This document shows, piece by piece, positions 1 to 14,709 of a stretch of 16,880 nt of DNA; positions within the stretch are counted from its first letter, which is position 1; each line of letters starts with the position of its first letter. The translations under genes were made by a program, and so were the position numbers. The DNA lies in contig CAVTNR010000006.1 in assembly GCA_963736115.1 (NCBI GenBank), forward strand, positions 1-16,880, read 5' to 3'. This DNA is from an uncultured bacterium. GTDB taxonomy: Bacteria; Zhuqueibacterota; QNDG01; DTFT01. The notes beneath the pieces are model-generated. The model saw nothing but the letters and a program-made list of their open reading frames with translations, was not told where the DNA came from and made no database searches.

Positions 1-81
1 GGCCGGTAAGACCTTTCAGGTCTGTCAAAAAATCGACCCTGGGGTTCGCACTCTTTGATATCCACGCGTTTGCGAGTAAAG

Positions 82-134
82 ATGAAAGGCTGAAGCCTGA
101 ATTCCCGGAAGGAGTTCAGGCTTCAGCCTTTCAT
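82..134. repeat. Long inverted repeat (24-bp arms, 5-nt loop); probable terminator of the metal-uptake operon and/or REP-like doublet
   Basis: ATGAAAGGCTGAAGCCTGAATTCC (82-105) pairs with GGAGTTCAGGCTTCAGCCTTTCAT (111-134) with one T:G; lies 16 nt past the permease stop codon; each arm holds an internal palindrome AGGCT-NN-AGCCT. Confidence 0.75.
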
Positions 135-150
135 TTGAGCACCCCTTCGT

Positions 151-900
151 TCAACCGGACGCGTCCGTCCTCGGCCGGATCGCCGAAGCGACGAGCGCGG
201 CCAGCGCGTTCATAAAAACGATGGCATATCCCGTGGGCAGATCGAGCCGGTACGAAAGGGCGATCGCCGCGAGATTCACGGCTGTGCCGATGCCCCAGGC
301 GGCGAGAAGGGGCTGCCGGAAGCTGCATTTCAGCGCGACCAGGGCGGGCGCCACCAGTAGGGCGAACACCACGAGAACACCCGCCAGACGCACCGAACTG
401 GTGACGGTCATCGCGAATGTGACGAAAAAGATCACGTCCCGCACCGTTCCGGGCTTCTGGCGCCGGGACAGGAACAGCACCGCGCCCAGCACAGCATACA
501 GAACGGCCGTCTTGACGATCTCCGTCGCGGGCGTGAACAGTATGTCCGCGGCCATCAGCCGGTCGAACATTTCCGTGCCGTGATACGACTTGGACAGCAG
601 CAGGAACACACCGGACAGTCCGAACGCGTACAGGAGCCCGATGAAGGCTTCCAGGTGGATATCCCGCCGGGAGGCGAAAGCGATGATGAATCCCCCGGCG
701 AGTGCGAATCCGAGGGATATCGGATAGATGAAATGGCCGTCCAGAAACAGGAGGGATATGGCCGCTCCCAGGGCGGCCATCTGCCCGATCGCGAGATCGG
801 TGAAGATGATGCCGCGCCGGATGATTTCCAGCCCGAAATACGAGTGTATTCCCAGCAGGACGAGGCAGAGCACAAACGCTGAAAACAGGATGTCACTCAT
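151..900 (-). CDS. Metal (Zn/Mn/Fe) ABC transporter permease, ZnuB/MntB (ABC-3) family
   Basis: Multi-TM hydrophobic protein; 'HSYFGLEIIRRGIIFTDLAIGQMAALG', 'SSVRLAGVLVVFALLVAPA' and 'DLPTGYAIV' motifs of ABC-3 permeases; start overlaps upstream binding-protein gene. Confidence 0.9.
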   Translation of the reverse strand: MSDILFSAFVLCLVLLGIHSYFGLEIIRRGIIFTDLAIGQMAALGAAISLLFLDGHFIYPISLGFALAGGFIIAFASRRDIHLEAFIGLLYAFGLSGVFLLLSKSYHGTEMFDRLMAADILFTPATEIVKTAVLYAVLGAVLFLSRRQKPGTVRDVIFFVTFAMTVTSSVRLAGVLVVFALLVAPALVALKCSFRQPLLAAWGIGTAVNLAAIALSYRLDLPTGYAIVFMNALAALVASAIRPRTDASG

Positions 901-1786
901 GGGTCAGCCTCGCGACGATTTCATCGAACAAAGTAACGATCCCTTCCGCGCCCGGAACCGCGCCCACGTCATGCGGGAGCGCCACCATCGGAATTCCGTG
1001 CTTGTGCGACAGGTGCCGGGCCGCGGCGTCGGGGTTGTAGATGTCCTGCAGGATGAAACGGATGCGCGTATTCCGGATGATCTGTTCCAGGCCTTCGATG
1101 TGACGCGAGGTCGGCGGAATGCCGGGAAGCGGTTCAATGGTACCGGCCAGCGCCAGGTGGAAACGCCGCATGAAGTAATCGAAGTTTTTGTGGTATTCGA
1201 TGACCGAAGCGCCGCTCAGCGGCTTCAGTCGGCTTTCCCACTCCGACATTTTGACAGCCCAGGACTCCTGAAAAGCCTTGAGATTCGAATTGAAAACCGG
1301 AGCCAGCCCGGGATCCATCTCCCCGAGCCGGACGGCGATCGCCTCGGCCAGGGGCGGGATATTTGCCGGGTCGAGATAGTAATGCGGATTGCCCTCCGGA
1401 TGAACGTCGCCCTGCGCGCGCGACACGCTGGAGGGAACGTCGATCAGAGTGACGGCCATGGACAGATCCAGCAGGCCGGACGTGCCGGCCTGGATTTTCG
1501 AATTGTTGGCCTGGTTCAGAAGCGGCGGGAGCCACCCGATTTCCAGCTGGCCGCCGTTGATGACCAGGAGGTCCGCCTTCCGGAGGTGGGCGATAAAGGA
1601 GGGCTTGGGAACGATGGTATGGGGGTTCCAGTCGCCCCGGGCAAGTGCATGGACCCGGACGTTATCCCCGCCGACTTTCCGCGCGAGTTCCGCTATGTAA
1701 GGATACGTGGTGACGACCTGGATGCGGCGAGCCGAAGCCTGGGTGACGCAGGTCAGAACGGCCAGCGCCAGAATGCATCTTTTCAT
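893..1786 (-). CDS. Periplasmic metal-binding protein, ZnuA/TroA (cluster A-I) family
   Basis: Signal peptide ending ASA; 'VVTTYP', 'DWNPH', 'GDVHPEGNPHYYLDP', 'EYHKNFDYF', 'EPLPGIPPT' motifs; SD AGGAG upstream. Confidence 0.92.
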   Translation of the reverse strand: MKRCILALAVLTCVTQASARRIQVVTTYPYIAELARKVGGDNVRVHALARGDWNPHTIVPKPSFIAHLRKADLLVINGGQLEIGWLPPLLNQANNSKIQAGTSGLLDLSMAVTLIDVPSSVSRAQGDVHPEGNPHYYLDPANIPPLAEAIAVRLGEMDPGLAPVFNSNLKAFQESWAVKMSEWESRLKPLSGASVIEYHKNFDYFMRRFHLALAGTIEPLPGIPPTSRHIEGLEQIIRNTRIRFILQDIYNPDAAARHLSHKHGIPMVALPHDVGAVPGAEGIVTLFDEIVARLTHE

Positions 1787-1805
1787 TGGACTTCTCCTTG
1801 TTTTC

Positions 1806-3107
1806 TTAAAAGGGATGCGCGCCGTGCGCGCCGATCGAAAGGTTGCACTGCAGAACCAGCTCCCGCACGGACACCGGACGGAAAGACATGCCTTCCCTGC
1901 GGAAAAGGGAGCGGTCCTCGTTGACCTGAAGCCGGATCCGGGAGAACTCGGTCGGATTGAATTCCGTCATGACCGACACCCGGCGCAAACCGTCCGGGAA
2001 AACCTCCCGTACACCGTCTGCCCGCCAATCGTTGCCGAGAATGCGGTCGACTCGGACGCCGAGGCGGCTCCGCATGCCGTACTTGAAAACCAGCTGTCCG
2101 TATGCTCCCGACTGACGCGTGAGAAGCGACGCATCCTGAACGGCATCGAGTGCGTCCTTCCCGTAGTGCCGCCCCTCCATCCGCCGGTGCATGAATTCGG
2201 ACTGAAAGGAAAGATATCGGTTCGAATCGATGAGGCGCTTGAGAGTGAGGCTCCCCCCGAGCAGGCGGGTGTCCGCCCGCAGGGCACTCCCCTCGATTCC
2301 GGAGACTTCCAGGCCGTCATCGGTCCGGGTCCCTCCGGACGCACACGATGCCCCCAGCAGAATGATCCAGTCCCCGACATCGAAGGACGTGCGCGTGAAA
2401 ACAGTGAACAGATTCGGACCGTCCTTGTCGGCGACCCGGAACGTTCCGGACGGGTCCTCGAATCCGGACCGGCCGAAACTGGCTTCGTTCTCTCCGGTCA
2501 GGGCCTCCGCGCCGATCATCCAGTACACGGAAGAAGGAAGTACGCAGGTCAGCTGAACCCCCTTTTCATTCAATCCCTCTTCCCCCAGAAACGCCCGGTG
2601 AATCAGGGGCGATCCTGAAAAATCCCAGGAATGCTCATGCTGTTCATTGATGCGGGAAAAGGCGCTCAGGAATTTGCCGGCCTTGACCTGCGTTCCCATC
2701 GGCAGTTTCCGCGTCGTGAAATACCCCTCCTCTATTTCAAATCCCTCTTCCGACAGATGAAAAACACCGGCCAGGTTGAAGTACGGATCCACGACTGACG
2801 AGACCATCAATTCCCCGTAATTCAGGTTGAATCCCCGGCCCGGGAAATCCCCTTCATGGGCATGCCCCGCCTCCGATCCTCCGCCCGTCGAAAGGACCAG
2901 GCCGGGCACCGTCAGGTTTTCAAGCCGATAATCGCTCCGATTCCTCATCACTCCCGAAAAATCCAGGATAAAGGATATGTCCGGAACAAAGGATTGCTGG
3001 GAGAAGGGATTCCCGGTCCGGGAATCCGATCCCGCCTGTCCGGCCGCAAAAGCGGCCGGCATCCAGCATAACAGAAATAATATCCCACGGTTCAAGCGTT
3101 TTCGCAT
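1806..3107 (-). CDS. Outer-membrane beta-barrel protein of the family commonly labelled 'zinc-regulated (TonB-dependent) outer membrane receptor'
   Basis: Start moved to ATG 3107 (SD GGAG at 3114-3117); signal peptide ending AFA; His patch GHAHE; 'GFNLNYGEL', 'VDPYF', 'EEGYF', 'RINEQHEHSWDF', 'PTEFSRIRLQ' and C-terminal 'IGAHGAHPF'. Confidence 0.8.
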   Translation of the reverse strand: MRKRLNRGILFLLCWMPAAFAAGQAGSDSRTGNPFSQQSFVPDISFILDFSGVMRNRSDYRLENLTVPGLVLSTGGGSEAGHAHEGDFPGRGFNLNYGELMVSSVVDPYFNLAGVFHLSEEGFEIEEGYFTTRKLPMGTQVKAGKFLSAFSRINEQHEHSWDFSGSPLIHRAFLGEEGLNEKGVQLTCVLPSSVYWMIGAEALTGENEASFGRSGFEDPSGTFRVADKDGPNLFTVFTRTSFDVGDWIILLGASCASGGTRTDDGLEVSGIEGSALRADTRLLGGSLTLKRLIDSNRYLSFQSEFMHRRMEGRHYGKDALDAVQDASLLTRQSGAYGQLVFKYGMRSRLGVRVDRILGNDWRADGVREVFPDGLRRVSVMTEFNPTEFSRIRLQVNEDRSLFRREGMSFRPVSVRELVLQCNLSIGAHGAHPF

Positions 3108-3319
3108 GTTGGACTCCGTATCGATTGAGACGGGAGAAGACACAGTCCACCGTCCTGCCCGAAGCCGAAAGGGCCGCGCTCAAACGGCGGCGGCGAGAAA
3201 CTTCCGAGCGCGCGGCGAACCGTTCGAAAAGGGATAGAACGACGGCCGTCCGGTCCCGGAAATCCGTGTCCGGAAGGACAAGCCGGTTAAAAAAACAGGT
3301 CAATGGAAAGCGGGAAAAA
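3108..3319 (-). promoter_or_regulatory. Structured intergenic leader, candidate attenuator with alternative anti-SD pairings
   Basis: Pairings found by eye: 3139-3149 with 3110-3122 (covers SD), 3236-3249 with 3142-3156 (competes), hairpin 3248-3279; pyrimidine-rich tract just after the upstream ORF stop. Confidence 0.45.
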
Positions 3320-3694
3320 TCAGAAAGCCAATGCGGGAGGGCCTCGCAAGCATGCGGTATCGAAACAGCGGAAATTGTACGGGGATTTCGGACGGATCAA
3401 ACCGGCCGGACGACTGCGGGACAGCAGAATGGGTACAGCGGCAAAGCAGACAAGAAAAACGAATATGGACCGGACGAACAGGCCCAGCAGGAGCGCTTCA
3501 TCATCCGGGTGATGATGATTCGGCAGGGAACGGGATTGGGATTCGTTCCGCTCGAATGGATGGGCGTGGAATACGGTTCCGTTCCCGTTGACAACATGGC
3601 AGTGACCGAAGTAAGAAACATTGAACTGGAGCCATGCCCAGGGAATGAGAACACACGATAAACCAAGAAAGATTTTCAGCCGTTTCCGGATCAT
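3320..3694 (-). CDS. Small His-rich membrane protein with C-terminal RGPP motif (candidate metal-sensing ribosome-arrest leader)
   Basis: Basic N-terminus plus hydrophobic segment, HCH...HAHPF...HHH loop, second hydrophobic segment, then LRGPP-ALAF-stop; ATG 3694 with GGAG close upstream (alternative TTG 3703); own promoter. Confidence 0.8.
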   Translation of the reverse strand: MIRKRLKIFLGLSCVLIPWAWLQFNVSYFGHCHVVNGNGTVFHAHPFERNESQSRSLPNHHHPDDEALLLGLFVRSIFVFLVCFAAVPILLSRSRPAGLIRPKSPYNFRCFDTACLRGPPALAF

Positions 3695-3721
3695 AATCTC
3701 CAATCGACAGTCAAGACGCTA

Positions 3722-3750
3722 AATATATTAAATGGACGTGTTTCTGTCAA
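3722..3750 (-). promoter_or_regulatory. sigma70-type promoter of the metal-uptake unit
   Basis: Minus strand TTGACA (3750-3745), exactly 17 nt, TATATT (3727-3722), in an AT-rich island ~30 nt upstream of the ATG at 3694. Confidence 0.85.
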
Positions 3751-3760
3751 TCGGTTTTTC

Positions 3761-3792
3761 AAAAAGAAAGAAGGGCGCCTTCCCAAAGAAGG
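3761..3792 (-). terminator. Possible intrinsic terminator of the ORP-type operon
   Basis: Minus strand GAAGG-CGC-CCUUC hairpin followed by UUUCUUUUU; short stem, with a competing upstream CCUUC. Confidence 0.45.
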
Positions 3793-3815
3793 TGACTTTT
3801 ATTCTCTTCAAAGAA

Positions 3816-3833
3816 TCCGACCCCGGGGTCGGA
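3816..3833. repeat. Perfect 18-bp palindrome TCCGACCCCGGGGTCGGA
   Basis: Self-reverse-complementary; 8 nt past the MBL hydrolase stop; related sequence at 34-48. Confidence 0.7.
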
Positions 3834-3841
3834 ACTTGATC

Positions 3842-4681
3842 TCACCCGAATTTGAACCGCATACCCGCGCGGCAGGGCCGGACGCGGCCCACGAAGGCTT
3901 CCGTCAGCGTCCGGACCGCGTTTTCACCCGTGCAATGGCAGGGCATCATCAGATCGGGCGGTTCGGTCATGAGCGCCGCCACGGTCCGGTCCAGCCTTTC
4001 CTGCGACGCTTCATGCAGGTGAAATCCGCCGATGACCGCGTGTATTTTGCGGGTGCCGCTGACCTGCCGGCAGCGGCTCAGGGTGTTGATCAGACCGGCA
4101 TGCGAGCATCCCGCGCAGACTACGATTCCGTACCGCGTGATAAACCACAGGGCTATGTCGTCGTCGAGCAGGTCCGGCCTGCGGCCGTCGGGATCCAGGT
4201 AGAACGGGCCGCCGGTGTCCTCCCACGTCGTCTCCCGCGGTACTGCGCCTGTCGTACCGATGCCCGGTCCGAGGAGGGCCGGTTCCGCGGAGGCGTGCAG
4301 ACGGTCCTGGGGAAGCGCTTCCAGCGATAGCCGACTGCCTTCGGGCATATGAACCGGTTTGGCTTTCCCGTTCCGGATGCTGGTGCGTCGGAGGAAGACG
4401 CCGGGGTGGCAGTACACATGAACCGCGGGACTGGCCTTAAGCGCGACCGGCACACCGCCGGTATGGTCGTAATGGCCGTGGCTCAGCACCAATTGATCCA
4501 TTGCGGACAAGTCCACATCCAGCATGCGGGCGTTTTCCGCCAGCGCGCCGACCTGGCCCGTGTCGAACAGAATGCGCCGGTTCCCGGTTTCGATCCAGAG
4601 GGACAGTCCGTGTTCCGGACGAAGGCCCTGTTCAGCCGTGTCATTGACCAGCACAGTCACTCTGAAAGACGTTCCGGTCAT
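3842..4681 (-). CDS. MBL-fold metallo-hydrolase (COG1237 type)
   Basis: 'EHGLS', 'LFDTG', 'SHGHYDHTGG', 'GCSHAG', 'GGFHL', 'PCHCTG'; ATG 4681 overlaps upstream stop (ATGA). Confidence 0.92.
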   Translation of the reverse strand: MTGTSFRVTVLVNDTAEQGLRPEHGLSLWIETGNRRILFDTGQVGALAENARMLDVDLSAMDQLVLSHGHYDHTGGVPVALKASPAVHVYCHPGVFLRRTSIRNGKAKPVHMPEGSRLSLEALPQDRLHASAEPALLGPGIGTTGAVPRETTWEDTGGPFYLDPDGRRPDLLDDDIALWFITRYGIVVCAGCSHAGLINTLSRCRQVSGTRKIHAVIGGFHLHEASQERLDRTVAALMTEPPDLMMPCHCTGENAVRTLTEAFVGRVRPCRAGMRFKFG

Positions 4682-5112
4682 GTTGTTTCCTTCATACTCA
4701 TGAAGGAGGCCACTGCATCGGCTTTCAGGCAGCCTCCACACCTGATCTCTGCTGACATGCGGTAGACCGGCTGTTTTGCCTTTTCAAGTCGAGCGCGGAT
4801 TAGACAGGATTCGCCGCACGCGACAGACGATCGGTACCTCACGTGGAGATCGCCGGTCAAACCGGCAATCCCGTGATGGAACAGACAATGTGTCATGGCA
4901 GCGTCCAGAAGGGTGGCGATCACGCCGCCGTGAAGGATCCCGCAATACCCCTGAAAGGCCGGATCCGACCGGAATTCGGCGTAGACGCTCCCGTCACTGT
5001 CCGGCCGGAAGCGAAGCCCGAGCGAACGCGGATTCTCCGCGCCGCAGACAAAGCATTGCTCATGCCGGGTGTCCTGAAGCGGCCGGACCTCGTCATCAAT
5101 GGTCGCAGGCAT
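4678..5112 (-). CDS. PaaI-family (hotdog fold) thioesterase
   Basis: 'CFVCGAENPRSLGLRF' and 'FQGY..ILHGGVIATLLD' motifs; start ATG 5112 preferred. Confidence 0.88.
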   Translation of the reverse strand: MPATIDDEVRPLQDTRHEQCFVCGAENPRSLGLRFRPDSDGSVYAEFRSDPAFQGYCGILHGGVIATLLDAAMTHCLFHHGIAGLTGDLHVRYRSSVACGESCLIRARLEKAKQPVYRMSAEIRCGGCLKADAVASFMSMKETT

Positions 5113-5434
5113 TGTCGCCGGTCTGAAGCGTGCCCGCGAGATAATCGGCAACCAGTTTCTCCGGCGCTTCCGACGGGACGCCGACGATCACACGTATGCC
5201 CTGCTCCTCGAAAAGTGCCTTGGCGCGCTGACCCATGCCGCCTGCGAGCACGACCTTGGCACCTTTACGTGCCAGCCACGGCGGCAGAAGGCCCGGCTGA
5301 TGGGGCGGCGCGTCGACGTCCTCTCGCTTGAGAATGGCGTGCGTCGCGGGATCCGTGTCCAGAAGAGCGAACTGGGCGCAATGCCCGAAATGCTGGGCCA
5401 GTCTGCCCTCCGCGATGGGAATGGCGATGATCAT
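5096..5434 (-). CDS. NifB/NifX-family (MTH1175-like) Fe-Mo cluster-binding protein
   Basis: 'MIIAIP..GRLAQHFGHC', 'PPHQPGLLP', 'AGGMGQRA', C-terminal 'NACDH'; ATG 5434 with SD AGGAG. Confidence 0.9.
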   Translation of the reverse strand: MIIAIPIAEGRLAQHFGHCAQFALLDTDPATHAILKREDVDAPPHQPGLLPPWLARKGAKVVLAGGMGQRAKALFEEQGIRVIVGVPSEAPEKLVADYLAGTLQTGDNACDH

Positions 5435-5459
5435 TTTAGAACTCCTGTCTAATTGAGGT

Positions 5460-6356
5460 TTATTCCGATCCCCGGCCGGACGGAATGTCGTCCAGAACCG
5501 CGATCGGACGGATGATGTCCCGCATGATCCGGGCCGTCGGACTGGAGGCGTGATGATGGATGAACACGCGGCCCTCGTCGCAGGCCCGGCCGACCGCCGG
5601 ATCAAAAGGCAAGGACCCGAGGAACGGCACGCCCATGTCCTCCGCGATCCGCCGGCCGCCGCCGAAACCGAGGATGGGTGTCACTTCGCCGCATTTCGGG
5701 CACGCGAATCCGCTCATGTTCTCCACCACGCCGAGCACCGGCAGGTTGAGCCTTCGGCAGAACGTGATGGATTTCCTCACGTCCACGGCCGCGACTTTCT
5801 GGGGCGTGGTCACCACCACGGCCCCGTCGAGGGAACCGATGAGCTGGACGACGGAAAGAGGCTCGTCCCCGGTGCCTGGCGGAGAATCGATAATGAGAAA
5901 GTCGAGATCACCCCATTCCACGTCCGCGAGGAACTGCCGGATCACGCCCATTTTCAGGGGACCGCGCCAGATCACGGCTTCGTCCGGGTCCCCCAGCAGA
6001 AAGCCGGCCGATACGACTTTCAAATCGCCGACTTCCACGGGGACAATTCCGTCCGCGTCTCCGGCCAGCGTCTGTCCTTCGAGCCCCAGCAGGGTCGGCA
6101 CGCTCGGGCCGTGAATATCGACGTCGAGCAGGCCCGTGCGCTTGCCTGAAAGGGAGAGCGCGGCGGCCAGGTTCACGGCCACGGTGCTCTTGCCCACTCC
6201 GCCCTTTCCGGACAGAACGATCACTTTATGTCGGATGCGGCAGAGCCGCGACAGGAGCTTTTGGCGGTCGCGGAACTCCTGTTCGCTCTCCTCTTTACCG
6301 CGCTGGGATGCGGCACAGTCGGTCTTCTTGCAGCCGCCGCAGGAGGATGCGTTCAC
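5460..6356 (-). CDS. mrp: Mrp/NBP35 (ApbC) family Fe-S cluster carrier ATPase
   Basis: 'SGKGGVGKST', 'DVDIHGPS', 'AVIWRGP', 'DSPPGTGDE', 'VTTPQ', 'ENMSGFACPKC'; GTG 6356 after SD AAGGA; N-terminal CGGC...C. Confidence 0.93.
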   Translation of the reverse strand: MNASSCGGCKKTDCAASQRGKEESEQEFRDRQKLLSRLCRIRHKVIVLSGKGGVGKSTVAVNLAAALSLSGKRTGLLDVDIHGPSVPTLLGLEGQTLAGDADGIVPVEVGDLKVVSAGFLLGDPDEAVIWRGPLKMGVIRQFLADVEWGDLDFLIIDSPPGTGDEPLSVVQLIGSLDGAVVVTTPQKVAAVDVRKSITFCRRLNLPVLGVVENMSGFACPKCGEVTPILGFGGGRRIAEDMGVPFLGSLPFDPAVGRACDEGRVFIHHHASSPTARIMRDIIRPIAVLDDIPSGRGSE

Positions 6357-6357
6357 G

Positions 6358-6762
6358 TCATTCCTTTCCGGTTTCGGTGATGGATCTGGAGAGAAAATCT
6401 TGGCACGCGGCCCGGAGCACGTTCGAGGCCAGCAGGGCGCAGTGTTCCATGCCTTCGGGCAGGCCGCCGAGCGCCCGCAGGATATCCGCCTGAGTGACGG
6501 CGGCCACGTCCGCAACGGACCTGCCCTGCGCCAGGCACGTGGCCATGCTGCCGCAGGCCATGGAGGATCCGCACCCGTCCGTCGTGAAGGCGATTTTTTC
6601 CGCCCGGCCGTTCCTGACGGTCAGCCAGAATTCCATGGTGTCCCCGCAGGGTCCGGTGATCCGGGCGTGTCCGTCCGCGGCCTCCATCGGACCGAGGTTG
6701 CGCGGGTTGAACGCGTGATCCAGAACGAGATGCGAAACCAGGGGTAATTCGCTCTCCGCCAT
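6358..6762 (-). CDS. IscU/NifU N-terminal-type Fe-S scaffold protein
   Basis: 'LDHAFNPRNLG', 'GPCGDTM', 'DGCG', 'HCALLA' with the three scaffold cysteines. Confidence 0.9.
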   Translation of the reverse strand: MAESELPLVSHLVLDHAFNPRNLGPMEAADGHARITGPCGDTMEFWLTVRNGRAEKIAFTTDGCGSSMACGSMATCLAQGRSVADVAAVTQADILRALGGLPEGMEHCALLASNVLRAACQDFLSRSITETGKE

Positions 6763-6774
6763 GTGTTGCCTCTT

Positions 6775-7686
6775 TTAAAAGCCGGGTCCGGCCGGAAGAC
6801 CGGCGAGTTTCAGGATATTCTTCCACAACGCGGTCATGTCCTCTCCGGCGCCGGATCCGGTTTCGACCGCCGACAGAGACCGCATCTGCGCGCCGGTCAC
6901 TGCCGCGTCGTACCGCACGCGCCCCGCGATATGGGCGCCGGCTGTCCGCGCCGAATCCTCGATGCGCTGCGTCATGTCCTCATGAATATCCCACTTGTTC
7001 ACGCACACGGCCGTTGGAACGCCGAAATGCCGCGCCAGGGACAGTACGCGTTCGAGATCGTGCGCTCCGCTGACCGTGGGCTCCGTCACGGCCAGAATCA
7101 GGGAAGCGCCCGTCACGGAGGCGATGACCGGGCAACCGATGCCGGGCGGTCCGTCGGCCAGGATCAGGAAACGGGACTCCGCTTCAGCGACGCGTCTGGC
7201 CTCGCGGCGCACCGTGGAGACCAGTTTGCCGGAATTGTCCGCGGCCGGAAAAAGTCTCGCATGCACCATGGGCCCGCACCGGGTGTCCGACACCATCCAT
7301 TCGCCGCAGACCTTTTCGGGAAAGGCGATGGCGTTCTCCGCGCAGAAACGGACGCAGACGCCGCATCCCTCGCATGCGGCCGGATCCACGGCGTATCGGA
7401 CGCCGTCCGGCCGGCCTTCGACCCTTCGGATCGCGTCGAACCGGCACATCTCCTCGCACGTGCCGCACCCGGAACAGCGATCAGGATCGATGACGGCTGA
7501 ATGACCGCCGCGGAATTCGTGCTTCTCCCGGACCCGCGGCGACAGGACCAGGTGCAGGTCCGCGGCGTCGACGTCGCAGTCCGCGATCACCGGCCGGTGC
7601 GCGAGCGCGGCGAATGCGGCCGTGATGCTGGTCTTGCCGGTTCCGCCTTTCCCGCTGATGACCACGATTTCCGTCAAATCAGCCAT
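6775..7686 (-). CDS. MinD-superfamily P-loop ATPase with inserted 2x[4Fe-4S] ferredoxin domain
   Basis: 'ISGKGGTGKTS', 'DCDVDAADLHL', CSGCGTCEEMC and CEGCGVCVRFC, 'NSGKLV', 'DGPPGIGCPV', 'VTEPT..G.HDL'. Confidence 0.93.
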   Translation of the reverse strand: MADLTEIVVISGKGGTGKTSITAAFAALAHRPVIADCDVDAADLHLVLSPRVREKHEFRGGHSAVIDPDRCSGCGTCEEMCRFDAIRRVEGRPDGVRYAVDPAACEGCGVCVRFCAENAIAFPEKVCGEWMVSDTRCGPMVHARLFPAADNSGKLVSTVRREARRVAEAESRFLILADGPPGIGCPVIASVTGASLILAVTEPTVSGAHDLERVLSLARHFGVPTAVCVNKWDIHEDMTQRIEDSARTAGAHIAGRVRYDAAVTGAQMRSLSAVETGSGAGEDMTALWKNILKLAGLPAGPGF

Positions 7687-8566
7687 GCAGCCATCCTTCC
7701 GGGCCGCCGGGCGGAGCGTTCAGATGATCCGCCACTGCGCGGAACACGGCTTCGACCGTCGGGCTCTCCGGCAGAACCGCCCGTATTTTTTCCAGGTAGC
7801 CTCTTTCCTTCAGGCGTTCTACCGTAACCGTAAAATGAATGTCATACACCCAGCCGACCTGAAGCAGCTTGAAATCGTTCAGGCTGCGGATGTGATCGGA
7901 CCGGACGATCCGCTTTTCCATCAGGTCCCGGACCACCGCATCCGACACCCCGGGCGTGTCCGGAAGGTCCAGCTCGATGGTCGTGTCGGCCGGCCCTTCG
8001 GTGCGGCCGTAGTAGTCGGTGACGACTTTCCAGATATCGAGTTTGTCCGCGTCCCTGAGCATCAGGCAGAACATCCGTTCGCGTCCGGCCAAGTCCGGGG
8101 GCAGAAAGGCTATATTATGGCACGCCACCGCGCGCCGGACTTCGGACGCGGTCTCCCCGTCGAGGCCGGCCAGGACATTTCGCTGATCCAGAATCCGCAC
8201 GCCCAGTTCGGCGTGGTTCAAGGACTTCCGGTCCGCGAACGTCCGGTGAACGGCGTACTGCTCGAACCGGCCGATGTCGTGCAGAAGCGCGATGGTCTCG
8301 GCGAAACGAATTTCCGGACCGTCCAGGTTCAGGGATTCCCCGATCCGGACGATTTCTTCGCACACCCGCAGGCTGTGGTCCCTTTTCAGGACCATCGGAC
8401 CGGCATCCGGCCCGCCGGCGTCCGTGAATGTTCGGACGTACCGGTCGAACCAGTCGCGGATGGCGTCCCGTTCCGGCCGTCCGACGGCCGTCCGCCTTTC
8501 CTCCGGGCGGATCCGAGGCGCGGACGGAGTGTCTCCGCCGGAAAACCGGCTTTCCGTTTCCGTCAT
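7679..8566 (-). CDS. HD-domain phosphohydrolase
   Basis: 'LKRDHSLRV', 'LLHDIGRFEQY', 'NHAELG', 'CHN', 'RDADKLDI'; start ATG 8566, or 8611 overlapping the upstream stop. Confidence 0.88.
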   Translation of the reverse strand: MTETESRFSGGDTPSAPRIRPEERRTAVGRPERDAIRDWFDRYVRTFTDAGGPDAGPMVLKRDHSLRVCEEIVRIGESLNLDGPEIRFAETIALLHDIGRFEQYAVHRTFADRKSLNHAELGVRILDQRNVLAGLDGETASEVRRAVACHNIAFLPPDLAGRERMFCLMLRDADKLDIWKVVTDYYGRTEGPADTTIELDLPDTPGVSDAVVRDLMEKRIVRSDHIRSLNDFKLLQVGWVYDIHFTVTVERLKERGYLEKIRAVLPESPTVEAVFRAVADHLNAPPGGPEGWLHG

Positions 8567-8607
8567 TCGATCAGCCCCCTGCCCCGCTCCATCCCGAATG
8601 CAGTCCC

Positions 8608-9054
8608 TCATTCGTATCGCTTCATGATTTCCCGGTCCTCTGCGGTCAGTTTCGCCGCCAAATCCCCGATGCCCGTTTTGTCCCAGGACTTGAGCCGGTT
8701 GTGCGTTTCCAGGTAATGCAGGGGAATGGGATGGGTGCCGACCACGACCGGTATTCCATAGCGGCTTTCGATGAATTCCTTGAAATAACGGATGCGGGGG
8801 CAGGGCGGATAACCCACGACCAGACCCGTGGCCAGATGAATCGCCCCTGCGCCGTTCCGTATCATTTCCGCGGGCACTGTTTCGACGTTGCCTCCGGGAC
8901 ACCCGCCGCAGGAGGAATAACCGACGATTTCCAGTCTGTCCTCCGCCGGGTAAATCGAGAACCCGCCCGCGCGTTCACGGCTGGCGCGAAAGCATTTTCC
9001 CCCGCCGCAGCCGCGATACCGGTCGCAGATGATGATGCCGATTTTATGTTCCAT
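8608..9054 (-). CDS. CGGC-domain putative metal/Fe-S-binding protein
   Basis: 'IGIIIC....CGGGKC', 'GYSSCGGCPG', 'YPPCP', 'VVVGTH'; ATG 9054 with SD GGGAG. Confidence 0.9.
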   Translation of the reverse strand: MEHKIGIIICDRYRGCGGGKCFRASRERAGGFSIYPAEDRLEIVGYSSCGGCPGGNVETVPAEMIRNGAGAIHLATGLVVGYPPCPRIRYFKEFIESRYGIPVVVGTHPIPLHYLETHNRLKSWDKTGIGDLAAKLTAEDREIMKRYE

Positions 9055-9057
9055 CGT

Positions 9058-9235
9058 TAACTCCCGTTCTTCGTCCGGCGTGTCCACCTCGGAGCAAGAG
9101 ACCCTCTGCTGAATGGCCATGCCGATCACGTTGATCAGCCCGCCGCAGATGAGCCTCCGGTCGCCTGGCTGTTCCCGCGCTGACCATCCCCGCCGGTCCG
9201 CCTCCGATGATCAGAATATCCGTCTGAAGCTTCAT
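9058..9235 (-). pseudogene. Remnant of an FAD-dependent pyridine nucleotide-disulfide oxidoreductase (NADH oxidase/CoA-disulfide reductase-like)
   Basis: ATG 9235 with SD AGGA encodes MKLQTDILIIGGGPAGMVSAGTARR (GxGxxG Rossmann start); then, in a shifted frame, RRLICGGLINVIGMAIQQRVSCSEVDT, resembling the C-terminal dimerisation helix; the body of the gene is missing. Confidence 0.75.
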
Positions 9236-9258
9236 GGTTTTTCCTAATGCATGGGTGT

Positions 9259-9888
9259 TTATTTCACCGCCCGGATGACGACAAAGGATCCTTCTCCCCA
9301 GCCCGGCCGCACCGGTTCGACGCTTCGGATTTCCTCCATGGGCGAAAAAAGCGTCTGGCCGGCTTCGGGCCGCGACCATCCGGTTTCCGCCAGAAGCTCC
9401 ATAACGGCTTGAACCGGGTAAAAAACAGCGTCACGATAAAACCGGCTCCGCTGCGACGCGTCCCGGTACTGCCGCCCCAAAGGACTCTCCGCGTCCACAA
9501 AACCGACGACCAATCCTCCGCCGGACCTGACGATGCGGCGGGTCTCCCGCAATGTCTGCGCCGGGTCATCGAGAAAACAGAGAGTGGTCACCATGACCGC
9601 GAAGTCAAACGCGCGGGAACGGACAGGCAGAGCCTCGCCGGTTCCGCGGATGACCCGGATCCCCCTGGCCGCGGCGATCCGCGCCATCCGGCCGGCGGGC
9701 TCGACCCCGAACCGGATTCCAAGGCGGGACGCGAAGCGACCCGTTCCCGCACCGATTTCAATGCCCTCGCCTTGCGCGGGTATGAACCCAGCCACGGCCT
9801 GAAGCTCGGAACGGTAAACGGCGTCATGCTTTTCGAACCAGCCGTCGTACCGGTCGGCATGCGTTTCAAACGGCTCAATACGCGGCAT
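9259..9888 (-). CDS. Class I SAM-dependent methyltransferase
   Basis: 'YDGWF', 'IEIGAGTGRF', 'GVEP', 'GEALP...FD', 'TLCFLDDP'. Confidence 0.92.
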   Translation of the reverse strand: MPRIEPFETHADRYDGWFEKHDAVYRSELQAVAGFIPAQGEGIEIGAGTGRFASRLGIRFGVEPAGRMARIAAARGIRVIRGTGEALPVRSRAFDFAVMVTTLCFLDDPAQTLRETRRIVRSGGGLVVGFVDAESPLGRQYRDASQRSRFYRDAVFYPVQAVMELLAETGWSRPEAGQTLFSPMEEIRSVEPVRPGWGEGSFVVIRAVK

Positions 9889-9948
9889 GCGGAACGCCCC
9901 GTGACCAGGCGGCCGGCACCGCGGCCGAACGGGCCGCCTGGAGCGATA

Positions 9949-10743
9949 TCACCGCGCGACGCGAAATCCGTAGCATTCGTAGAAATTTTTCGGCCGATTC
10001 CGGAACCGGTTCGTCGTCCCGCAGCTCGCGGGGTCATTCATCCACGATCCGCCCCGCAGGACGCGATGCGTCCCGCATGCGGGCCCTTTCGGATCAACGG
10101 CGGGCTCCGGCAAATACGGACCGTGCCAATCCGCGCACCATTCCCAGACATTCCCCGTCATATCGTATAGCCCGAGCGGGTTGGGATTGAAAGACGCGAC
10201 CGGGGACGTATACCGCCAGCCGTCCGTGTATCCCTCGAAGATGAGGGTCCTCGGCTTCACGATCCGGAGCGATTCGTCCGCCACGTTTCCTCCGGCAGTA
10301 CCGGACGGCGCCGCGTTCCCCCAGTCGAACCTGAGCGAGTCGCCGCGGTTCCGCGCCGCGTATTCCCATTCCGCCTCCGTCGGAAGCCTGCATCCGGCCC
10401 AGTCGCAGAATGCCCGGGCCAGGTTCCAGCTCACATTGACCACCGGATGATCCTCCTGAAACCCCCATTCAGGCGCCAGGGGCATACGCCTTCGGGTCGC
10501 CTTGCAGAATACCCGGAACTGGGCGACCGTGACTTCGGTCTTTCCCAGGTAAAAATCGGAAACCGTGACCCGGTGCACGGGCCGGCTGTCCGCGTCCCCG
10601 CGGTTGAAAATATCGCCTATGTCGAAGGTCCCGCCCTTGACGAAGACAAATTCCAGACCGGCAGGATTGTTGTCAGCGACCGGGGTCCGGCCGGACAGGG
10701 CCAGACCGCATCCGAGGCAGAGCAGAAAAGTGATCCGTTTCAA
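9949..10743 (-). CDS. Secreted formylglycine-generating-enzyme (FGE-sulfatase/SUMF1) domain protein
   Basis: TTG 10743 after SD GGAGA gives signal-like MKRITFLLCLGCGLALS; 'TEVT', 'HPVVNVSW', 'RLPTEAEWEYAAR', 'GLYDMTGNVWEWC', 'RGGSW', 'GFR'. Confidence 0.9.
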   Translation of the reverse strand: MKRITFLLCLGCGLALSGRTPVADNNPAGLEFVFVKGGTFDIGDIFNRGDADSRPVHRVTVSDFYLGKTEVTVAQFRVFCKATRRRMPLAPEWGFQEDHPVVNVSWNLARAFCDWAGCRLPTEAEWEYAARNRGDSLRFDWGNAAPSGTAGGNVADESLRIVKPRTLIFEGYTDGWRYTSPVASFNPNPLGLYDMTGNVWEWCADWHGPYLPEPAVDPKGPACGTHRVLRGGSWMNDPASCGTTNRFRNRPKNFYECYGFRVAR

Positions 10744-10818
10744 TTCATTCTCCGGTTTTGTCCAAATCCGTGATGAAAACCGATGCGGCCGGGTCAACCG
10801 CCCGTCACAGTACAAGGA

Positions 10819-11790
10819 TCAGGCCGGAGGACCCTCCGTCCCGGCCAGGACATAGAGGCACTTGCCGTCCTGCGCCACGACACGGACAATTCCGGCACGG
10901 GTCCACTCGTCCAGCTGTTTCAGCAGGACCATCTCCCGAACCGCGAGACCGGCGGCGATGTCCTCGAGCGTGCAGGGCCTCCGCGCCAGGAGTCCCCGGA
11001 TTTCAGCTTCGGAGACGGTGTCCCCCTCGATCGGTCCGGCGGTTCGGTACGCGGCGATCACCTCGGCGGCGGGATCGAACCGTGCAGCCAGGGCTTCCAG
11101 CGCCTCCTGAGGAACGGCCTTGGTAAATCCGTCCGGCGCCGGACGGGTGACCGTGTTGAGCTGAATCCGTTCAGGCCTGATTTTCGCCGCGCACGCGGCG
11201 ATCGAAGCCGCCTGAACGGGTTTATCCGTCACGCCCTTCATGAGAAAGACTTCCAGCCAGACGGGCTTTTTAAAGACGGCTGTGAATGCGGCCAGACCGT
11301 CGACCATACGCTCGAAGTCTACAGCCGGATGCGGCCGGTTCACGGTCAGGAAAGTGCGCTCATCCCCGGCGTCCAGGGACGGAATCACCCGGTCGGCCTC
11401 CATCAGAGCCTCCCGCACCTCCGGAATCCAGAGAAGCGATCCATTGGTCAGCACGGTGACCGGAATCCGGGTGACCGTCTTGATCCGATCGATGAGTCCG
11501 CCGATTCCGGAATGCAGGGTCGGCTCGCCGGATCCCGCCAGCGTGATGGTGTCCGGCGTACCCGCCGAGGCCAGCTTCCACTCCAGCTCGTCGATGATCT
11601 CGTCCGTATCGGCGTGGTTCCGCCGCTCCGTCGTCAGACAGGTCGTGGGTCCGAGCTGGCAATAGGCGCAGTCATAGGTGCAGGTTTTAAAAGGGACGAG
11701 ATCCACGCCCAGGGACCGGCCGAGACGCCTGGAGGGAACGGGACCGTACAGGTAGCGCAGACCGCCCCTGTCCGGGTCTAACTCCCGCAC
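10819..11790 (-). CDS. Radical SAM protein (COG0731-like) with C-terminal winged-helix-like tail
   Basis: 'YGPVPSRRLGRSLGVDL', CTYDCAYC (CxxxCxxC), 'GSGEPTL', 'LTNGSLL'; start inferred at GTG 11790. Confidence 0.9.
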   Translation of the reverse strand: MRELDPDRGGLRYLYGPVPSRRLGRSLGVDLVPFKTCTYDCAYCQLGPTTCLTTERRNHADTDEIIDELEWKLASAGTPDTITLAGSGEPTLHSGIGGLIDRIKTVTRIPVTVLTNGSLLWIPEVREALMEADRVIPSLDAGDERTFLTVNRPHPAVDFERMVDGLAAFTAVFKKPVWLEVFLMKGVTDKPVQAASIAACAAKIRPERIQLNTVTRPAPDGFTKAVPQEALEALAARFDPAAEVIAAYRTAGPIEGDTVSEAEIRGLLARRPCTLEDIAAGLAVREMVLLKQLDEWTRAGIVRVVAQDGKCLYVLAGTEGPPA

Positions 11791-12038
11791 GACGCGTCCC
11801 CGCAGCGTTCCTCCCGTCCGCAGCAGGTCCTGCCCGTGGAATGGAGCGCGCAGTCCCCGGCCTCCCGCCGGGTCCTGCCGCCGGCTCCGTCCTTGAGAAG
11901 GAATCCGACTCCGCCGCTGATCACCCGGTTCACTTTTCCGCCGCATTCCGGACAGGCGGTCACGGGCGGTTCGGAAATGCCCTGCTGCCTGTCGAACCGG
12001 CCGCCGCATCCCTCGCAGATGTATTCGTAAGTGGGCAT
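11778..12038 (-). CDS. FmdB-family zinc-ribbon protein
   Basis: 'MPTYEYICEGCG...CPECGG....IS' plus Cys-rich tail C...CC.....C....C; SD AGGAGG. Confidence 0.9.
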   Translation of the reverse strand: MPTYEYICEGCGGRFDRQQGISEPPVTACPECGGKVNRVISGGVGFLLKDGAGGRTRREAGDCALHSTGRTCCGREERCGDASCGS

Positions 12039-12042
12039 GGCT

Positions 12043-12945
12043 TCAACCTCCTTGCGACCGTGCGGTCACGGTACGCCACAATTCCTGAAACAGGGGAACG
12101 TATTCCGGCAGGGCGTCCACGATGAGCTCTCCCCTGGAATAAGCCTCGGCGATGCGGCGGTCGTCCGGCACCTCCGCGAGAATGGGGATGGCTTCGCGTC
12201 TGCAGTATTCATGGACGCGGCCGTCTCCCACGCCCATCCGGTTGACCACGACCCCGCAGGGAATACCCAGCTGGCGGATCATGTCCACGGCCAGGGTCAG
12301 GTCATGCAGACCGAACGGCGTCGGCTCCGTGACCAGCACCGTGAAATCGGCCCCCCGCACCGCGGCCATGACGGGGCAGGAGGTCCCGGGGGGCGCGTCC
12401 ACGATCGCCGGCGTCCCGGCCTCCATCCGCTTCTTCACCGCGTGAATGAGGGGCACCGACATGACCACGCCCACGTCGAGCAGGCCCTGGATCAGACGGA
12501 TGTCCCCGGCGTCCATGGTTTCGATGGCGCCGATGCGCCGCGGTATCTCCCGGATGGCGCCGCGTGGGCAGACTCGACTGCACCCGCCGCAGGCATGGCA
12601 GAGTTCGGGAAACAGGATGGGCCTGTCCTTCGGCACCGCGATGGCGTGAAACGCGCAGAACCGGCCGCATTCACCGCATCCGTCGCAGAGCGATTCGTCC
12701 ACCTGCGGCACGGAGAGATTGACGGTTTCCGTGCTCCAGGACCGGCCCCCGAGAAACAGATGGCCGTTCGGCTCCTCGACATCGCAGTCGAGTATCTGCA
12801 CTTTCGACACGCACGCCTTTGCCAGATTCAGCGTGACCGTGGTCTTGCCCGTGCCGCCCTTTCCCGAGGCAATCGCGATGACCGGACTGCTTCGGCCTTT
12901 CGCGGGTGCGGGCGCGCCTGCCGGAATCCGTTCGGACGCCTTCAT
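12043..12945 (-). CDS. MinD-superfamily P-loop ATPase with inserted 2x[4Fe-4S] ferredoxin domain
   Basis: 'ASGKGGTGKTT', 'DCDVEEPNGHLF', CDGCGECGRFC and CHACGGCSRVCP, 'DAPPGTSCPV', 'VTEPTPFGLHDL'. Confidence 0.93.
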   Translation of the reverse strand: MKASERIPAGAPAPAKGRSSPVIAIASGKGGTGKTTVTLNLAKACVSKVQILDCDVEEPNGHLFLGGRSWSTETVNLSVPQVDESLCDGCGECGRFCAFHAIAVPKDRPILFPELCHACGGCSRVCPRGAIREIPRRIGAIETMDAGDIRLIQGLLDVGVVMSVPLIHAVKKRMEAGTPAIVDAPPGTSCPVMAAVRGADFTVLVTEPTPFGLHDLTLAVDMIRQLGIPCGVVVNRMGVGDGRVHEYCRREAIPILAEVPDDRRIAEAYSRGELIVDALPEYVPLFQELWRTVTARSQGG

Positions 12946-12964
12946 GATACCGCCGATCCCCGTT

Positions 12965-13543
12965 TCACCGGGACCGTTTCACCAGCACGGCAGCGGCAAG
13001 CACCGTTGTCCACAGGCCGTTCTTGTCGCCCTTGGCAGTCTGGGTGATCTCCCGGGTCGTGACGATTTCTCCGCCGAGCCGGTATTGTTCCTTGCGCTGG
13101 TCGTAGTCCTTGTCCGCGTCGAACGGCACGCCAAGGGTCGTCGCCAGCATCTGCGCCGCGAGGTCCTCCGCGTAATCGCCCGCGGTTTTCTCGGTCATTC
13201 CAGAGCAGTGATGCTCGGAGAGGTATCCGTAATGCTCCTTGTTGCGGGGAATGGCGAGGCCGATGCTCGCGGCGATCAGACGGTTCGGCTCGTTCGATTC
13301 CGAACGCGCCATGACGCAATAAACGATCTGCCCGGGCCGGAGGTGCTTCTGGCCCTCTTTATTTGAAATGAGCCTGCACCTCGGGGGAAAAATCGAACTG
13401 ACGCTGACCAGGTTGTACATGGCGATGCCCGCGTCCCGCAGGGCCTCCTCAAAGGAGGACAGCTTCTCCCGGCTCCTGCCGACCCCCTTGGTCAGGAACA
13501 CGCTGTCGGGGATGAAGCTCGAAGTCGATTCCATCATTTTCAT
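12965..13543 (-). CDS. pdaD: Pyruvoyl-dependent arginine decarboxylase
   Basis: 'FLTKGVG....LSSFE.ALRDAGIA.YNLVSVSSIFPP' with the Ser-Ser self-cleavage site, 'YGYLSEHH', 'WTTVLAAAV'; ATG 13543 overlaps upstream stop (ATGA). Confidence 0.92.
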   Translation of the reverse strand: MKMMESTSSFIPDSVFLTKGVGRSREKLSSFEEALRDAGIAMYNLVSVSSIFPPRCRLISNKEGQKHLRPGQIVYCVMARSESNEPNRLIAASIGLAIPRNKEHYGYLSEHHCSGMTEKTAGDYAEDLAAQMLATTLGVPFDADKDYDQRKEQYRLGGEIVTTREITQTAKGDKNGLWTTVLAAAVLVKRSR

Positions 13544-13800
13544 GTCCCTCTCTGATTCTCCTTCACCACGGACTGTTTCAGCATCCGGATTCGCCATTGA
13601 AGGCCTTCCATCCGCATCCGGATCTGAAGCCTGTGGAGGACCGGGTCGGGGAATCCGCTCATGATAGGACGACCGGAAAGTCCCGCAAAGCCGATGAGCG
13701 ACCTGCCTCCGGTTCCGGATTTTTTCAGAATGCAGTACCCGTTCACCCGGCCGGTCATCGGTCCCCGTCCGGTCGGCCCGGTTCCGTCAAATCCGGGCAT
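13540..13800 (-). CDS. DUF5320-family protein (second, divergent copy)
   Basis: 'MPGFDGTGPTGRGPMTGR..GYC' signature and C-terminal coiled-coil-like segment; SD AGGAGG. Confidence 0.8.
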   Translation of the reverse strand: MPGFDGTGPTGRGPMTGRVNGYCILKKSGTGGRSLIGFAGLSGRPIMSGFPDPVLHRLQIRMRMEGLQWRIRMLKQSVVKENQRGT

Positions 13801-13830
13801 GGCCGTCTCCTCCTGATTTCCGCAGGGGAC

Positions 13831-14193: not shown

Positions 14194-14301
14194 CTCAGGT
14201 GCTCCTTTAAAGTCGGCGGGGACCCGGCAGGCGCGTTCGCAACCACCCGGCAGAGCCGGGTCCGCCGCTTCATTGTTCAGAATCGCCGCGGATGGCGGCC
14301 G

Positions 14302-14664: not shown

Positions 14665-14709
14665 GACTGGTTCCTCCTTATTTTTCGTTTGCTTCGTTTT
14701 TCGTTATGG

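Follow-up and report, generated by a model that had tools for sequence, protein, structure and literature searches.

A candidate histidine-based, metal-sensing ribosome-arrest leader ahead of a porin-ZnuA-ZnuB operon, and the family of small membrane proteins to which it belongs

RGPP is the most robust core among ribosome-arrest sequences, and an enrichment of small open reading frames (ORFs) with RGPP or RAPP has been shown ahead of the genes for TonB receptors and of metal genes (Fujiwara et al., 2025, PMC12992588). Motifs of this R[AG]PP type are strongly avoided in proteomes and caused arrest in every context tested (PMC12992588). For instance, CruR stalls at RAPP in vitro, with toeprints that place the first proline in the P site of the ribosome and the second in the A site (PMC12992588). 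The control of a TonB receptor by CruR runs through Rho and relies on the RAPP sequence and on the metal motif; the spacing of the motifs is conserved, and a rut region in which C exceeds G lies inside cruR (PMC9426467). The distance from CXXC to RAPP matters in this system (Roy et al., 2022, PMC9426467). In CutF from Rhodobacter capsulatus, copper strengthens the stall and unfolds a stem-loop that covers the ribosome-binding site (RBS) of cutO (PMC9973294; 10.1101/2025.02.05.636593). Ozturk et al. (2023) gathered 5,334 CutF-like proteins in 29 clusters, 40% of them from Bacteroidota after normalisation, and the His-only clusters 14 and 17 adjoin HupE/UreJ genes for nickel or cobalt (PMC9973294). 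Here, we analyse a stretch of 16,880 nucleotides from an uncultured bacterium (GenBank assembly GCA_963736115.1, contig CAVTNR010000006.1, positions 1 to 16,880; referred to as the window), in which a leader ORF of 124 codons with an RGPP ending precedes genes for a porin-like barrel, a ZnuA-type protein and a ZnuB-type permease. Taking the evidence below together, we consider it likely, with a probability of about 0.6, that this ORF acts in cis as a metal-sensing arrest leader similar to CruR and CutF but built on a different sensor domain, with zinc as the probable metal.

The leader has the properties by which CutF-like proteins are defined: it is shorter than 150 residues, carries two consecutive prolines within its last 15 residues and an N-terminal export signal, and has a neighbour on the same strand within 1000 nt. 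It lies on the reverse strand (Table 1) in a frame that is free of stops between 3320 and 3703, and translation from the ATG at 3694 gives a protein that starts with MIRKRL and ends with CLRGPPALAF; its ortholog P0002 begins at the same methionine. The first-pass annotation, made from the letters of the window, had described a first gene of 124 codons with transmembrane (TM) segments, seven histidines, a 25-residue linker and RGPP four codons before the stop, and translation confirms this layout in full. The histidines of the loop are H31 and H33 in an HCH motif, H43 and H45 in HAHPF, and H60–H62 in HHH. Four lysines or arginines precede TM1, two lie in the loop and six follow TM2, a distribution of charges that predicts cytoplasmic positions for both termini (N-in/C-in) and a periplasmic one for the His loop. 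Both promoter hexamers are unchanged in the genome of the ortholog (G002), and a terminator-like hairpin of the upstream gene, which encodes an MBL-fold protein, is found at 3833–3816. The leader protein matched no Pfam family at E ≤ 0.1 and no NCBIfam model, and a scan of the whole window against Rfam returned no family. The sequencing runs that carry the locus hold it only in small-share contigs of sediment DNA, with no RNA run listed.

In a genome-wide control, the RGPP ending exceeds what the sequence would yield by chance. Among 17,010 mechanically called ORFs of 50–220 codons, 14 have R[AG]PP within their last 18 residues, and the leader ORF is the sole case in which R[AG]PP near the end is combined with a hydrophobic N-terminus.

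Homology searches show that the leader is no orphan but one of a conserved family of small proteins of the inner membrane, which occurs widely in Calditrichota-like bacteria and in Bacteroidota. While a word-indexed protein search returned a single ortholog (85% identical), a six-frame search of relatives gave weaker matches in 17 of 61 genomes, and a full HMMER scan of 1.84 billion representatives gave 110 proteins at E ≤ 1e-3. Nearly all of them have 115–135 residues; one is an unrelated protein of 866 residues. A MAFFT alignment, to which the column counts in the following refer, takes in 109 of the 110 representatives. Identity to the leader is only 20–31% across these sequences, and six histidines are invariant or nearly so: H31 (109/109), H33 (108/109), H43 (109/109), H45 (109/109), H60 (106/109) and H62 (107/109). 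The other conserved columns of the loop are N25 (86/108), G38 (98/109), P46 (106/109), F/Y47 (102/109), S/T63 and E66 (92/109), and the column of C32 is variable (Y in 28, F in 17 and A in 12 sequences). Some 50 unconserved columns follow, and then the C-terminal core, with R117 in 105/106, G or A at position 118, P119 in 105/106 and P120 in 104/107. The first-pass annotation had tied its reading to the conservation of the His motifs and of RGPP among homologs, and both are conserved. R[AG]PP is present in 94 of the 110 representatives, in 92 of them at most 13 residues from the C-terminus, and eight further representatives have RSPP, RPPP or RVPP near their end. Seven lack RxPP; three of these carry the near-variants RAPT, RAPA and KSPP, and the others look truncated. 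Since the RxPP codons vary freely among synonyms across the family, it is the peptide on which selection acts.

The comparison with the G002 ortholog gives a nonsynonymous divergence (Ka) of 0.071, a synonymous divergence (Ks) of 0.32 and a Ka/Ks ratio of 0.22, values that indicate purifying selection on the leader ORF. Matches to named families are few and weak: two of 94 members touch DUF2946 (best E 0.013, short of any curated cutoff) and two of 94 touch DUF6769 (best E 0.0038). In the ESM Atlas, the leader falls among unnamed clusters, mostly from Bacteroidota; the named clusters nearest to it are DUF6769 (0.93) and DUF2946 (0.92).

Across the family, the spacing of the motifs is as constant as the first-pass annotation had anticipated for the distance from the TM segment to RxPP. 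We measured distances in the 100 of 165 distinct sequences that fit strict patterns for all three motifs. The second histidine of the last HxH lies 54–56 residues before the arginine in 89 of the 100 (range 50–57), and the two His motifs are 16–17 residues apart in 87. RxPP is found 1–11 residues from the end, and the tail behind it has a median length of 5 residues (interquartile range 3–6). In the same 100 sequences, a median of 28.5 residues separates the last proline from the end of the most hydrophobic 19-mer behind the loop, and a hydrophobic 19-mer that resembles TM2 occurs in 85 of the 91 representatives measured. With Pro119 of the leader in the P site, TM2 would end 29 residues from the peptidyl-transferase centre (PTC), and would therefore be just out of the exit tunnel. 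A variable linker of fixed length behind which an invariant core follows is, in our analysis, the anatomy of a regulatory arrest peptide.

AlphaFold2, given a 94-row alignment, models the leader with a mean pLDDT of 80, and of 80–90 over residues 1–90. The model consists of the two helices listed in Table 1 and, between them, a β-hairpin (residues 30–35 and 39–44) that carries the HxH and HAH motifs; the C-terminal tail is a coil of lower confidence and predicted to be disordered. A Foldseek search of the leader protein against the PDB gave nothing at E ≤ 0.001.

The genomic context of the family points to metal uptake. In the leader's own phylum, the family profile matches in 46 of 167 species genomes, and in 31 of 105 among those of high quality. 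We examined 60 distinct copies with their flanks and typed the downstream genes by BLAST against references with checked Pfam domains. In every case the family gene leads its operon, and the spacers that separate it from the next gene are long and variable (35–776 nt). Operons for a TonB receptor with CarboxypepD_reg, Plug and barrel domains (765–874 residues) follow 33 copies; the order porin-ZnuA-ABC3-ABC3 follows 15 copies, including that of the window; and two copies have a receptor at a distance of 1.8–2.5 kb. The remaining ten, mostly at contig ends, are unclassified; one of these is the G002 ortholog (L009), which runs on into the porin gene with 237 of 285 codons identical. Hence, the position before metal transporters that the first-pass annotation had emphasized extends to 50 of the 60 copies, with either a TonB receptor or porin-ZnuA downstream. 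The two types of cargo are tied together by locus L017, where the leader is followed by a receptor, a gene of 103 codons, a porin and ZnuA. In a by-eye look for Zur boxes, with a motif pattern that missed many divergent members, the upstream regions show only promoters resembling the −35/−10 type.

Six loci (L055, L057, L058, L059, L061 and L062) have two family genes in tandem before one TonB receptor, as in L055 at 2444–2881 and 3112–3495 on the forward strand. In these pairs, the first gene is of the RGPP type (profile E of about 1e-30 to 1e-37) and the second of the RAPP type (about 1e-21 to 1e-27), and they may represent two-stage or two-input leaders. Two further loci merit mention. In L021 (G017:C349; 8435–9721, 7437–8330, 6676–7440, 5847–6239 and 3319–5700, all on the reverse strand), a porin of the window's type and a ZnuA of 297 residues lie directly upstream of a leader-receptor pair on the same strand, and a family ORF before this porin was not detected. 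L070 (G095:C5:1793775-1794086, forward strand) is the sole copy of the 60 without RxPP; its profile match ends at position 110 of 124, perhaps because the leader has decayed or suffered a frameshift.

The metal that would be sensed is probably zinc, which is our best guess from the genes downstream; nickel or cobalt are also possible. Among solved structures, the window's ZnuA is closest to the Synechocystis ZnuA, which binds zinc (E 4e-17). The histidines of the two proteins align in the motifs nPHt, nPHyy and yHknf, and these three positions are presumably the zinc ligands of the Synechocystis protein. The best NCBIfam hit of the window's ZnuA is AztC. Many ZnuA homologs and some receptors in the operons of the family have mature N-termini rich in histidine and arginine. 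Runs of the type QHxHRHRHG directly after the signal peptide occur in the ZnuA homologs of L020 (3477–4553, reverse strand), L067, L071, L074, L078 and L083, and runs of the same type in the TonB receptors of L088, L085 and L079.

The downstream unit of barrel, ZnuA and ZnuB, as read by the first-pass annotation, is borne out by a 16-strand porin model and by matches to PF01297 and PF00950. The barrel protein of 433 residues has no match in Pfam or NCBIfam, and a sequence-profile search of the PDB returned coiled-coil noise only. AlphaFold2, with 16 homologs, predicts a barrel of 16 strands (pLDDT 64, pTM 0.65) for which Foldseek retrieves porins, namely chitoporin (E 2.7e-11) and then OmpT, PorB and OprP. 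The 16 homologs form an unnamed porin family with an invariant HxH (H157, H159) and a C-terminal H-x-H-x-x-aromatic motif, and most of them have an N-terminal coiled-coil segment that the window's porin lacks. No gene for an ABC ATPase is found in the porin-ZnuA operons, neither in the window (151–900 and the start of the contig) nor in L020, L023 and others. The operons of the relatives end after two ABC-3 permease genes, of which the window shows one before the contig ends at base 1.

We propose that the leader acts as follows. A ribosome that reaches RGPP would stall in peptide-bond formation once, by analogy with the CruR toeprints, Pro119 occupies the P site and Pro120 the A site. At this point TM2 would be just clear of the tunnel and the His loop already periplasmic, and a metal ion on the loop, most likely Zn2+, would alter the pull of TM2 on the arrested chain and thereby change the duration of the stall. 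With a prolonged stall, porin-znuA-znuB would stay on, most likely because the stalled ribosome protects the leader RNA, which is rich in C and poor in G, against Rho, as has been shown for CruR; in some relatives, the stall may free the downstream RBS instead. Under metal sufficiency, the stall would be released, translation would terminate four codons further on, Rho would stop transcription in the spacer and the importer would be off. Least certain in this mechanism are whether metal shortens or prolongs the stall and how the stall is coupled to the downstream genes.

For the window, a coupling through Rho is favoured by the C>G skew of the family, by the presence of a Rho gene in the genome and by the parallel with the rut region of cruR. 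The ORFs of the family have a median C-G skew of +0.21 with 14% G, and that of the window's leader is +0.16, whereas the receptors, porins, ZnuA proteins and hydrophobic ABC-3 permeases of the same loci have skews of −0.03 to −0.06. The C-rich skew of the family ORFs continues beyond the stop codon for about 30 nt and then disappears. The spacer of the window differs from that of G002 by 15 substitutions and one 3-nt indel; this divergence of about 7% is four times below that of synonymous sites (Ks 0.32), so that the spacer, too, is constrained.

Several observations weigh against this proposal. The spacer, which the first-pass annotation had called structured, folds no better than shuffled sequences (minimum free energy z −0.06). 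Attenuation by an intrinsic terminator can be discarded as a general mechanism, as a terminator-like site is found in 2 of 46 spacers, compared to 2.6 expected. In the window, the duplex between the stall site and the downstream RBS is ordinary, with a rank of 0.44 (44% of other segments pair as well), and a thermodynamic model gives the porin RBS an accessibility of 0.42 whether the stall site is masked or not. Amino-acid composition may account for part of the C>G skew. The insertion of TM2 should pull with or without metal, so that the dependence on metal is an assumption. Family-like sequences before efflux genes, discussed below, need the opposite polarity. Finally, six invariant histidines equally suit a stable metal-binding membrane protein. 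The reading of the first-pass annotation, a His-based sensor in an arrest leader, stands in those of its predictions that could be computed (motifs, spacing and position), and was not supported for the structure of the spacer in the window. Separately, His-codon attenuation of the his-leader type was rejected, because the histidine codons are dispersed and the histidines conserved as a structural motif.

The alternative that survives best, although we regard it as unlikely, is also an arrest leader, in which either metal in the periplasm prolongs the stall, as in CutF, or the coupling is translational and not through Rho, with the stall opening a helix that pairs the stall-site codons with the Shine-Dalgarno (SD)/AUG region of the next gene. 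The enhancement of stalling by copper and the opening of an RBS stem-loop in CutF are a precedent for both, and SecM and MifM also act through such a helix. Moreover, when candidate partners of the downstream RBS are ranked in 46 loci, the segment around the stall site falls within the best 5% in 15 of them (2.3 expected) and comes first in 11. Native pairs of stall site and RBS are more stable than mismatched ones (−11.1 vs −9.6 kcal/mol, permutation p 0.0005) and native RxPP codons pair better than synonymous ones (median rank 0.30, 10 of 46 at ≤ 0.1, Wilcoxon p 0.003), p-values that are overstated as the loci are related and not independent. In the window, RNAalifold, applied to two sequences only, pairs the tail codons at 3336–3327 with the SD/AUG of the porin gene, with one compensatory pair in 70. 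The occurrence of family-like sequences before efflux genes would also fit this polarity. The pairing signal is limited to a subset of loci, however, and the window does not belong to it by its rank of 0.44 for the duplex and of 0.77 for its RxPP codons among synonymous alternatives. Masking of the stall site raises RBS accessibility by at least 0.1 in 8 of the 38 loci computed, specifically in comparison to control masks in only four, and lowers it in three, and the spacers are long and of variable length. In addition, a metal that prolongs the stall and thereby keeps an importer on would amount to positive feedback. Thus, a helix between stall site and RBS may operate in a subset of the loci.

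The strongest of these duplexes are found in L087 (−27.6 kcal/mol across a 219-nt spacer) and in L069, L061, L057 and L023 (−18 to −20 kcal/mol). In these five loci (with the leaders of L087 at 7056–7433 on the reverse strand, of L061 at 3130–3495 and of L057 at 3010–3441), the codons for Leu-Arg-Ala-Pro-Pro are extensively complementary to the SD/AUG of the next gene, which lies 70–260 nt away. Whether the arginine is encoded by AGA or by CGU seems to change together with the bases that separate SD from AUG.

Somewhat less probable still is that the protein is a stable component of metal uptake with two TM helices, such as a zinc chaperone or sensor that faces the periplasm, in which RxPP paces membrane insertion or takes part in binding and gates nothing. 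The six histidines, the glutamate and both TM segments are conserved, the fold of residues 1–90 is predicted with confidence, tandem paralogs occur in six loci and the Ka/Ks of 0.22 is what such a protein would show. What this explanation leaves without a reason is that RxPP is the best-conserved block outside the loop, that it is placed near the end behind a linker of fixed length and variable sequence, and that R[AG]PP is a motif which proteomes avoid and which arrested translation wherever it was tested (PMC12992588). Likewise, the C-terminal tail is predicted to be disordered, and the gene is always first, with its own promoter and a long spacer behind it. The roles of stable component and arrest leader are compatible with each other.

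Far less probable is an arrest peptide that monitors the insertion capacity of Sec/YidC or the proton-motive force, as MifM, ApcA and CliM do. A hairpin of two TM helices and a gap of about 29 residues between TM2 and the PTC match the geometry of a force sensor, and the known RAPP peptides monitor Sec/YidC. Yet sec and yidC are absent from the genes downstream, which are receptors or porin-ZnuABC in all 50 classifiable copies of the 60, and the six invariant histidines and the glutamate have no role in such a monitor. That the leader is a chance ORF or overlies a real gene on the opposite strand, for which the many overlapping mechanical ORFs of this G+C-rich window could speak (e.g. 3125–3661 on the forward strand), is refuted by 110 homologs that keep frame, motifs and length at about 25% identity and by the Ka/Ks of 0.22.

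Efflux contexts come from the published survey of arrest ORFs. Among 27 family-like rows examined from its source data, 23 precede TonB receptors, two RND adaptors and two TolC, and some of the rows in efflux contexts have no obvious TM2. The module of His motif and RAPP may thus be used with opposite output and a one-TM topology before efflux genes.

A more far-reaching version of the preferred reading is possible, though we would sooner bet against it than for it: that the family constitutes a mechanical Zn2+ sensor and the first post-transcriptional cis-regulator for zinc, reused in Calditrichota and Bacteroidota before importers, inverted before efflux pumps and doubled as a two-input gate in tandem. 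In such a sensor, the β-hairpin with its six histidines and glutamate between two TM helices would signal through TM2 and a linker of tunnel length to a ribosome arrested at RGPP. Explanations of zinc homeostasis in bacteria rely almost wholly on transcription factors such as Zur. If the proposal is true, a zinc sensor within a nascent peptide would be a new level of control over a major metal nutrient, and no riboswitch is known for copper or zinc, as Roy et al. state (PMC9426467). The sharp anatomy of these leaders would also suit studies of how the binding of a ligand outside the ribosome is converted to force at the PTC, which the discussion of Fujiwara et al. (PMC12992588) treats as an open question. 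Furthermore, hundreds of unannotated small genes in bacteria of the FCB group would gain a testable role, and the unnamed HxH porin family is flagged as a likely zinc channel.

The concept of the arrest leader is already published, and we found this family in print only as undescribed rows of the supplementary list of PMC12992588. Its source data (file 8) contain at least 21 sequences with HAHPF, 20 with HAHPY, 115 with HSHPF and 63 with HSHPY. The survey treats the TonB class statistically only, and its main text does not contain the His6 family, its two-TM topology, its spacing or zinc (PMC12992588). The main text of PMC9973294 mentions neither zinc nor ZnuA, and novelty relative to the CutF-like clusters is judged by their description in that text only. 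We found no published example of a zinc-responsive arrest peptide or upstream ORF, and in the sections accessible of a 2024 metallostasis review no mention of CruR, CutF or upstream ORFs. The first-pass annotation had known of no characterised His-type example in control of a barrel-ZnuA-ZnuB unit; this is upheld insofar as we found no characterised His-type or zinc example, and is narrowed by the RAPP/RGPP upstream ORFs and the His-only CutF-like clusters that have been published.

Elsewhere in the window, a cluster of Fe-S-related genes occupies 5096–7686 and 10819–12945 on the reverse strand. It encodes a Nitro_FeMo-Co domain protein, a ParA ATPase of the NUBPL/Mrp type, NifU_N, a radical SAM protein and two ATPases of the MinD/CbiA type that contain 4Fe-4S domains. 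Further along lie genes for a pyruvoyl arginine decarboxylase and for a sigma-54 activator.

Table 1. Positions and basis of the features assigned to the leader locus and the genes behind it in the window.
Feature	Position	Strand	Basis or remark
σ70-like promoter TTGACA-17-TATATT	3722..3750	−	11 of 12 consensus matches
SD GGAG (3701–3698) and ATG (3694–3692)	3692..3701	−	three bases between GGAG and ATG
Leader ORF, 124 residues, with stop	3320..3694	−	member of the His6/RxPP family, family unnamed
TM1/signal anchor, residues ~8–24, after K/R-rich N-terminus	3623..3673	−	sequence; AlphaFold2 helix 2–29; W21 and N25 conserved
Predicted periplasmic loop, residues 25–66	3497..3622	−	N25, H31xH33, G38, H43-A-H45-P-F, H60xH62-[ST]-x-x-E66
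TM2, residues 67–91	3422..3496	−	AlphaFold2 helix 64–93
Linker, residues 92–116 (25)	3347..3421	−	length conserved, sequence not; about the length of the exit tunnel
RGPP arrest core, R117 G118 P119 P120	3335..3346	−	predicted from sequence
Tail ALAF (four codons) and TGA (3322–3320)	3320..3334	−	sequence
Spacer, 212 nt, first 100 nt C-rich and G-poor	3108..3319	−	C-G skew +0.17 in the first 100 nt
Porin-like outer-membrane barrel, 433 residues, ATG 3107, SD GGAG 3117–3114	1806..3107	−	fold prediction
ZnuA-type periplasmic metal-binding protein with zinc-type His triad	893..1786	−	PF01297, E 7.6e-39
ABC-3 (ZnuB-type) permease	151..900	−	PF00950, E 6.1e-11; contig ends just beyond

Compared with described systems, the leader shares general features with several of them. 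In SecM, MifM and VemP, the force-sensitive arrest of an exported or membrane-bound nascent chain controls the next gene, as it would here, but their arrest sequences are different and they monitor the translocation machinery, not a metal. ApdA, ApdP and ApcA resemble the leader in that an arrest core lies near the C-terminus of a small protein with a localisation signal; they monitor Sec/YidC, whereas the signal proposed for the leader is a metal. DUF6769 (PF20558) likewise comprises small proteins of Bacteroidota and Calditrichota with an N-terminal TM segment and a His-rich stretch, but its sensor consists of HHHH and cysteines, it has a single TM segment and its model does not match the leader. 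In the literature, we found DUF6769 mentioned only in an unrelated context. One of its members (L054; G120:C98:5001-5384, reverse strand), which has HHHH, several cysteines and an ending LRAPPLA, is followed by a long spacer and a gene for an exported protein, and from this one member examined, DUF6769 also looks like a RAPP arrest leader. Several unrelated-looking sensor domains would then share the RAPP ending.

The closest parallels are CutF and CruR. With CutF, the leader has in common that sensing in the periplasm by a co-translationally exported chain is proposed and that many members come from Bacteroidota; in contrast to the leader, CutF turns on a detoxifying enzyme by metal-enhanced stalling, via a short spacer and a stem-loop. 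CruR (Bp2923 of Bordetella pertussis; DUF2946/PF11162) is, like the leader, encoded by a small first gene and has an export signal and a metal motif, with RxPP a few residues before the stop and a fixed spacing between motif and arrest site. In both, a C>G region lies within the leader, a long spacer (162 nt in CruR, 212 nt here) leads to a TonB receptor or metal importer, and metal is expected to turn the importer off. The differences concern mainly the sensor. The leader has no CXXC but six histidines and a glutamate in a loop between two TM helices, and the distance from motif to arrest site is about 55 residues and crosses a TM helix, compared to 45 in CruR. Pfam's DUF2946 does not match it, its context is zinc and not copper, and its hosts are Calditrichota-like bacteria and Bacteroidota rather than Proteobacteria. 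Moreover, regulation by CruR needed no signal peptide. The leader family is thus not a member of DUF2946/CruR and would be a relative of the CruR and CutF leaders by function, not by sequence, yet it is CruR-like on every architectural count.

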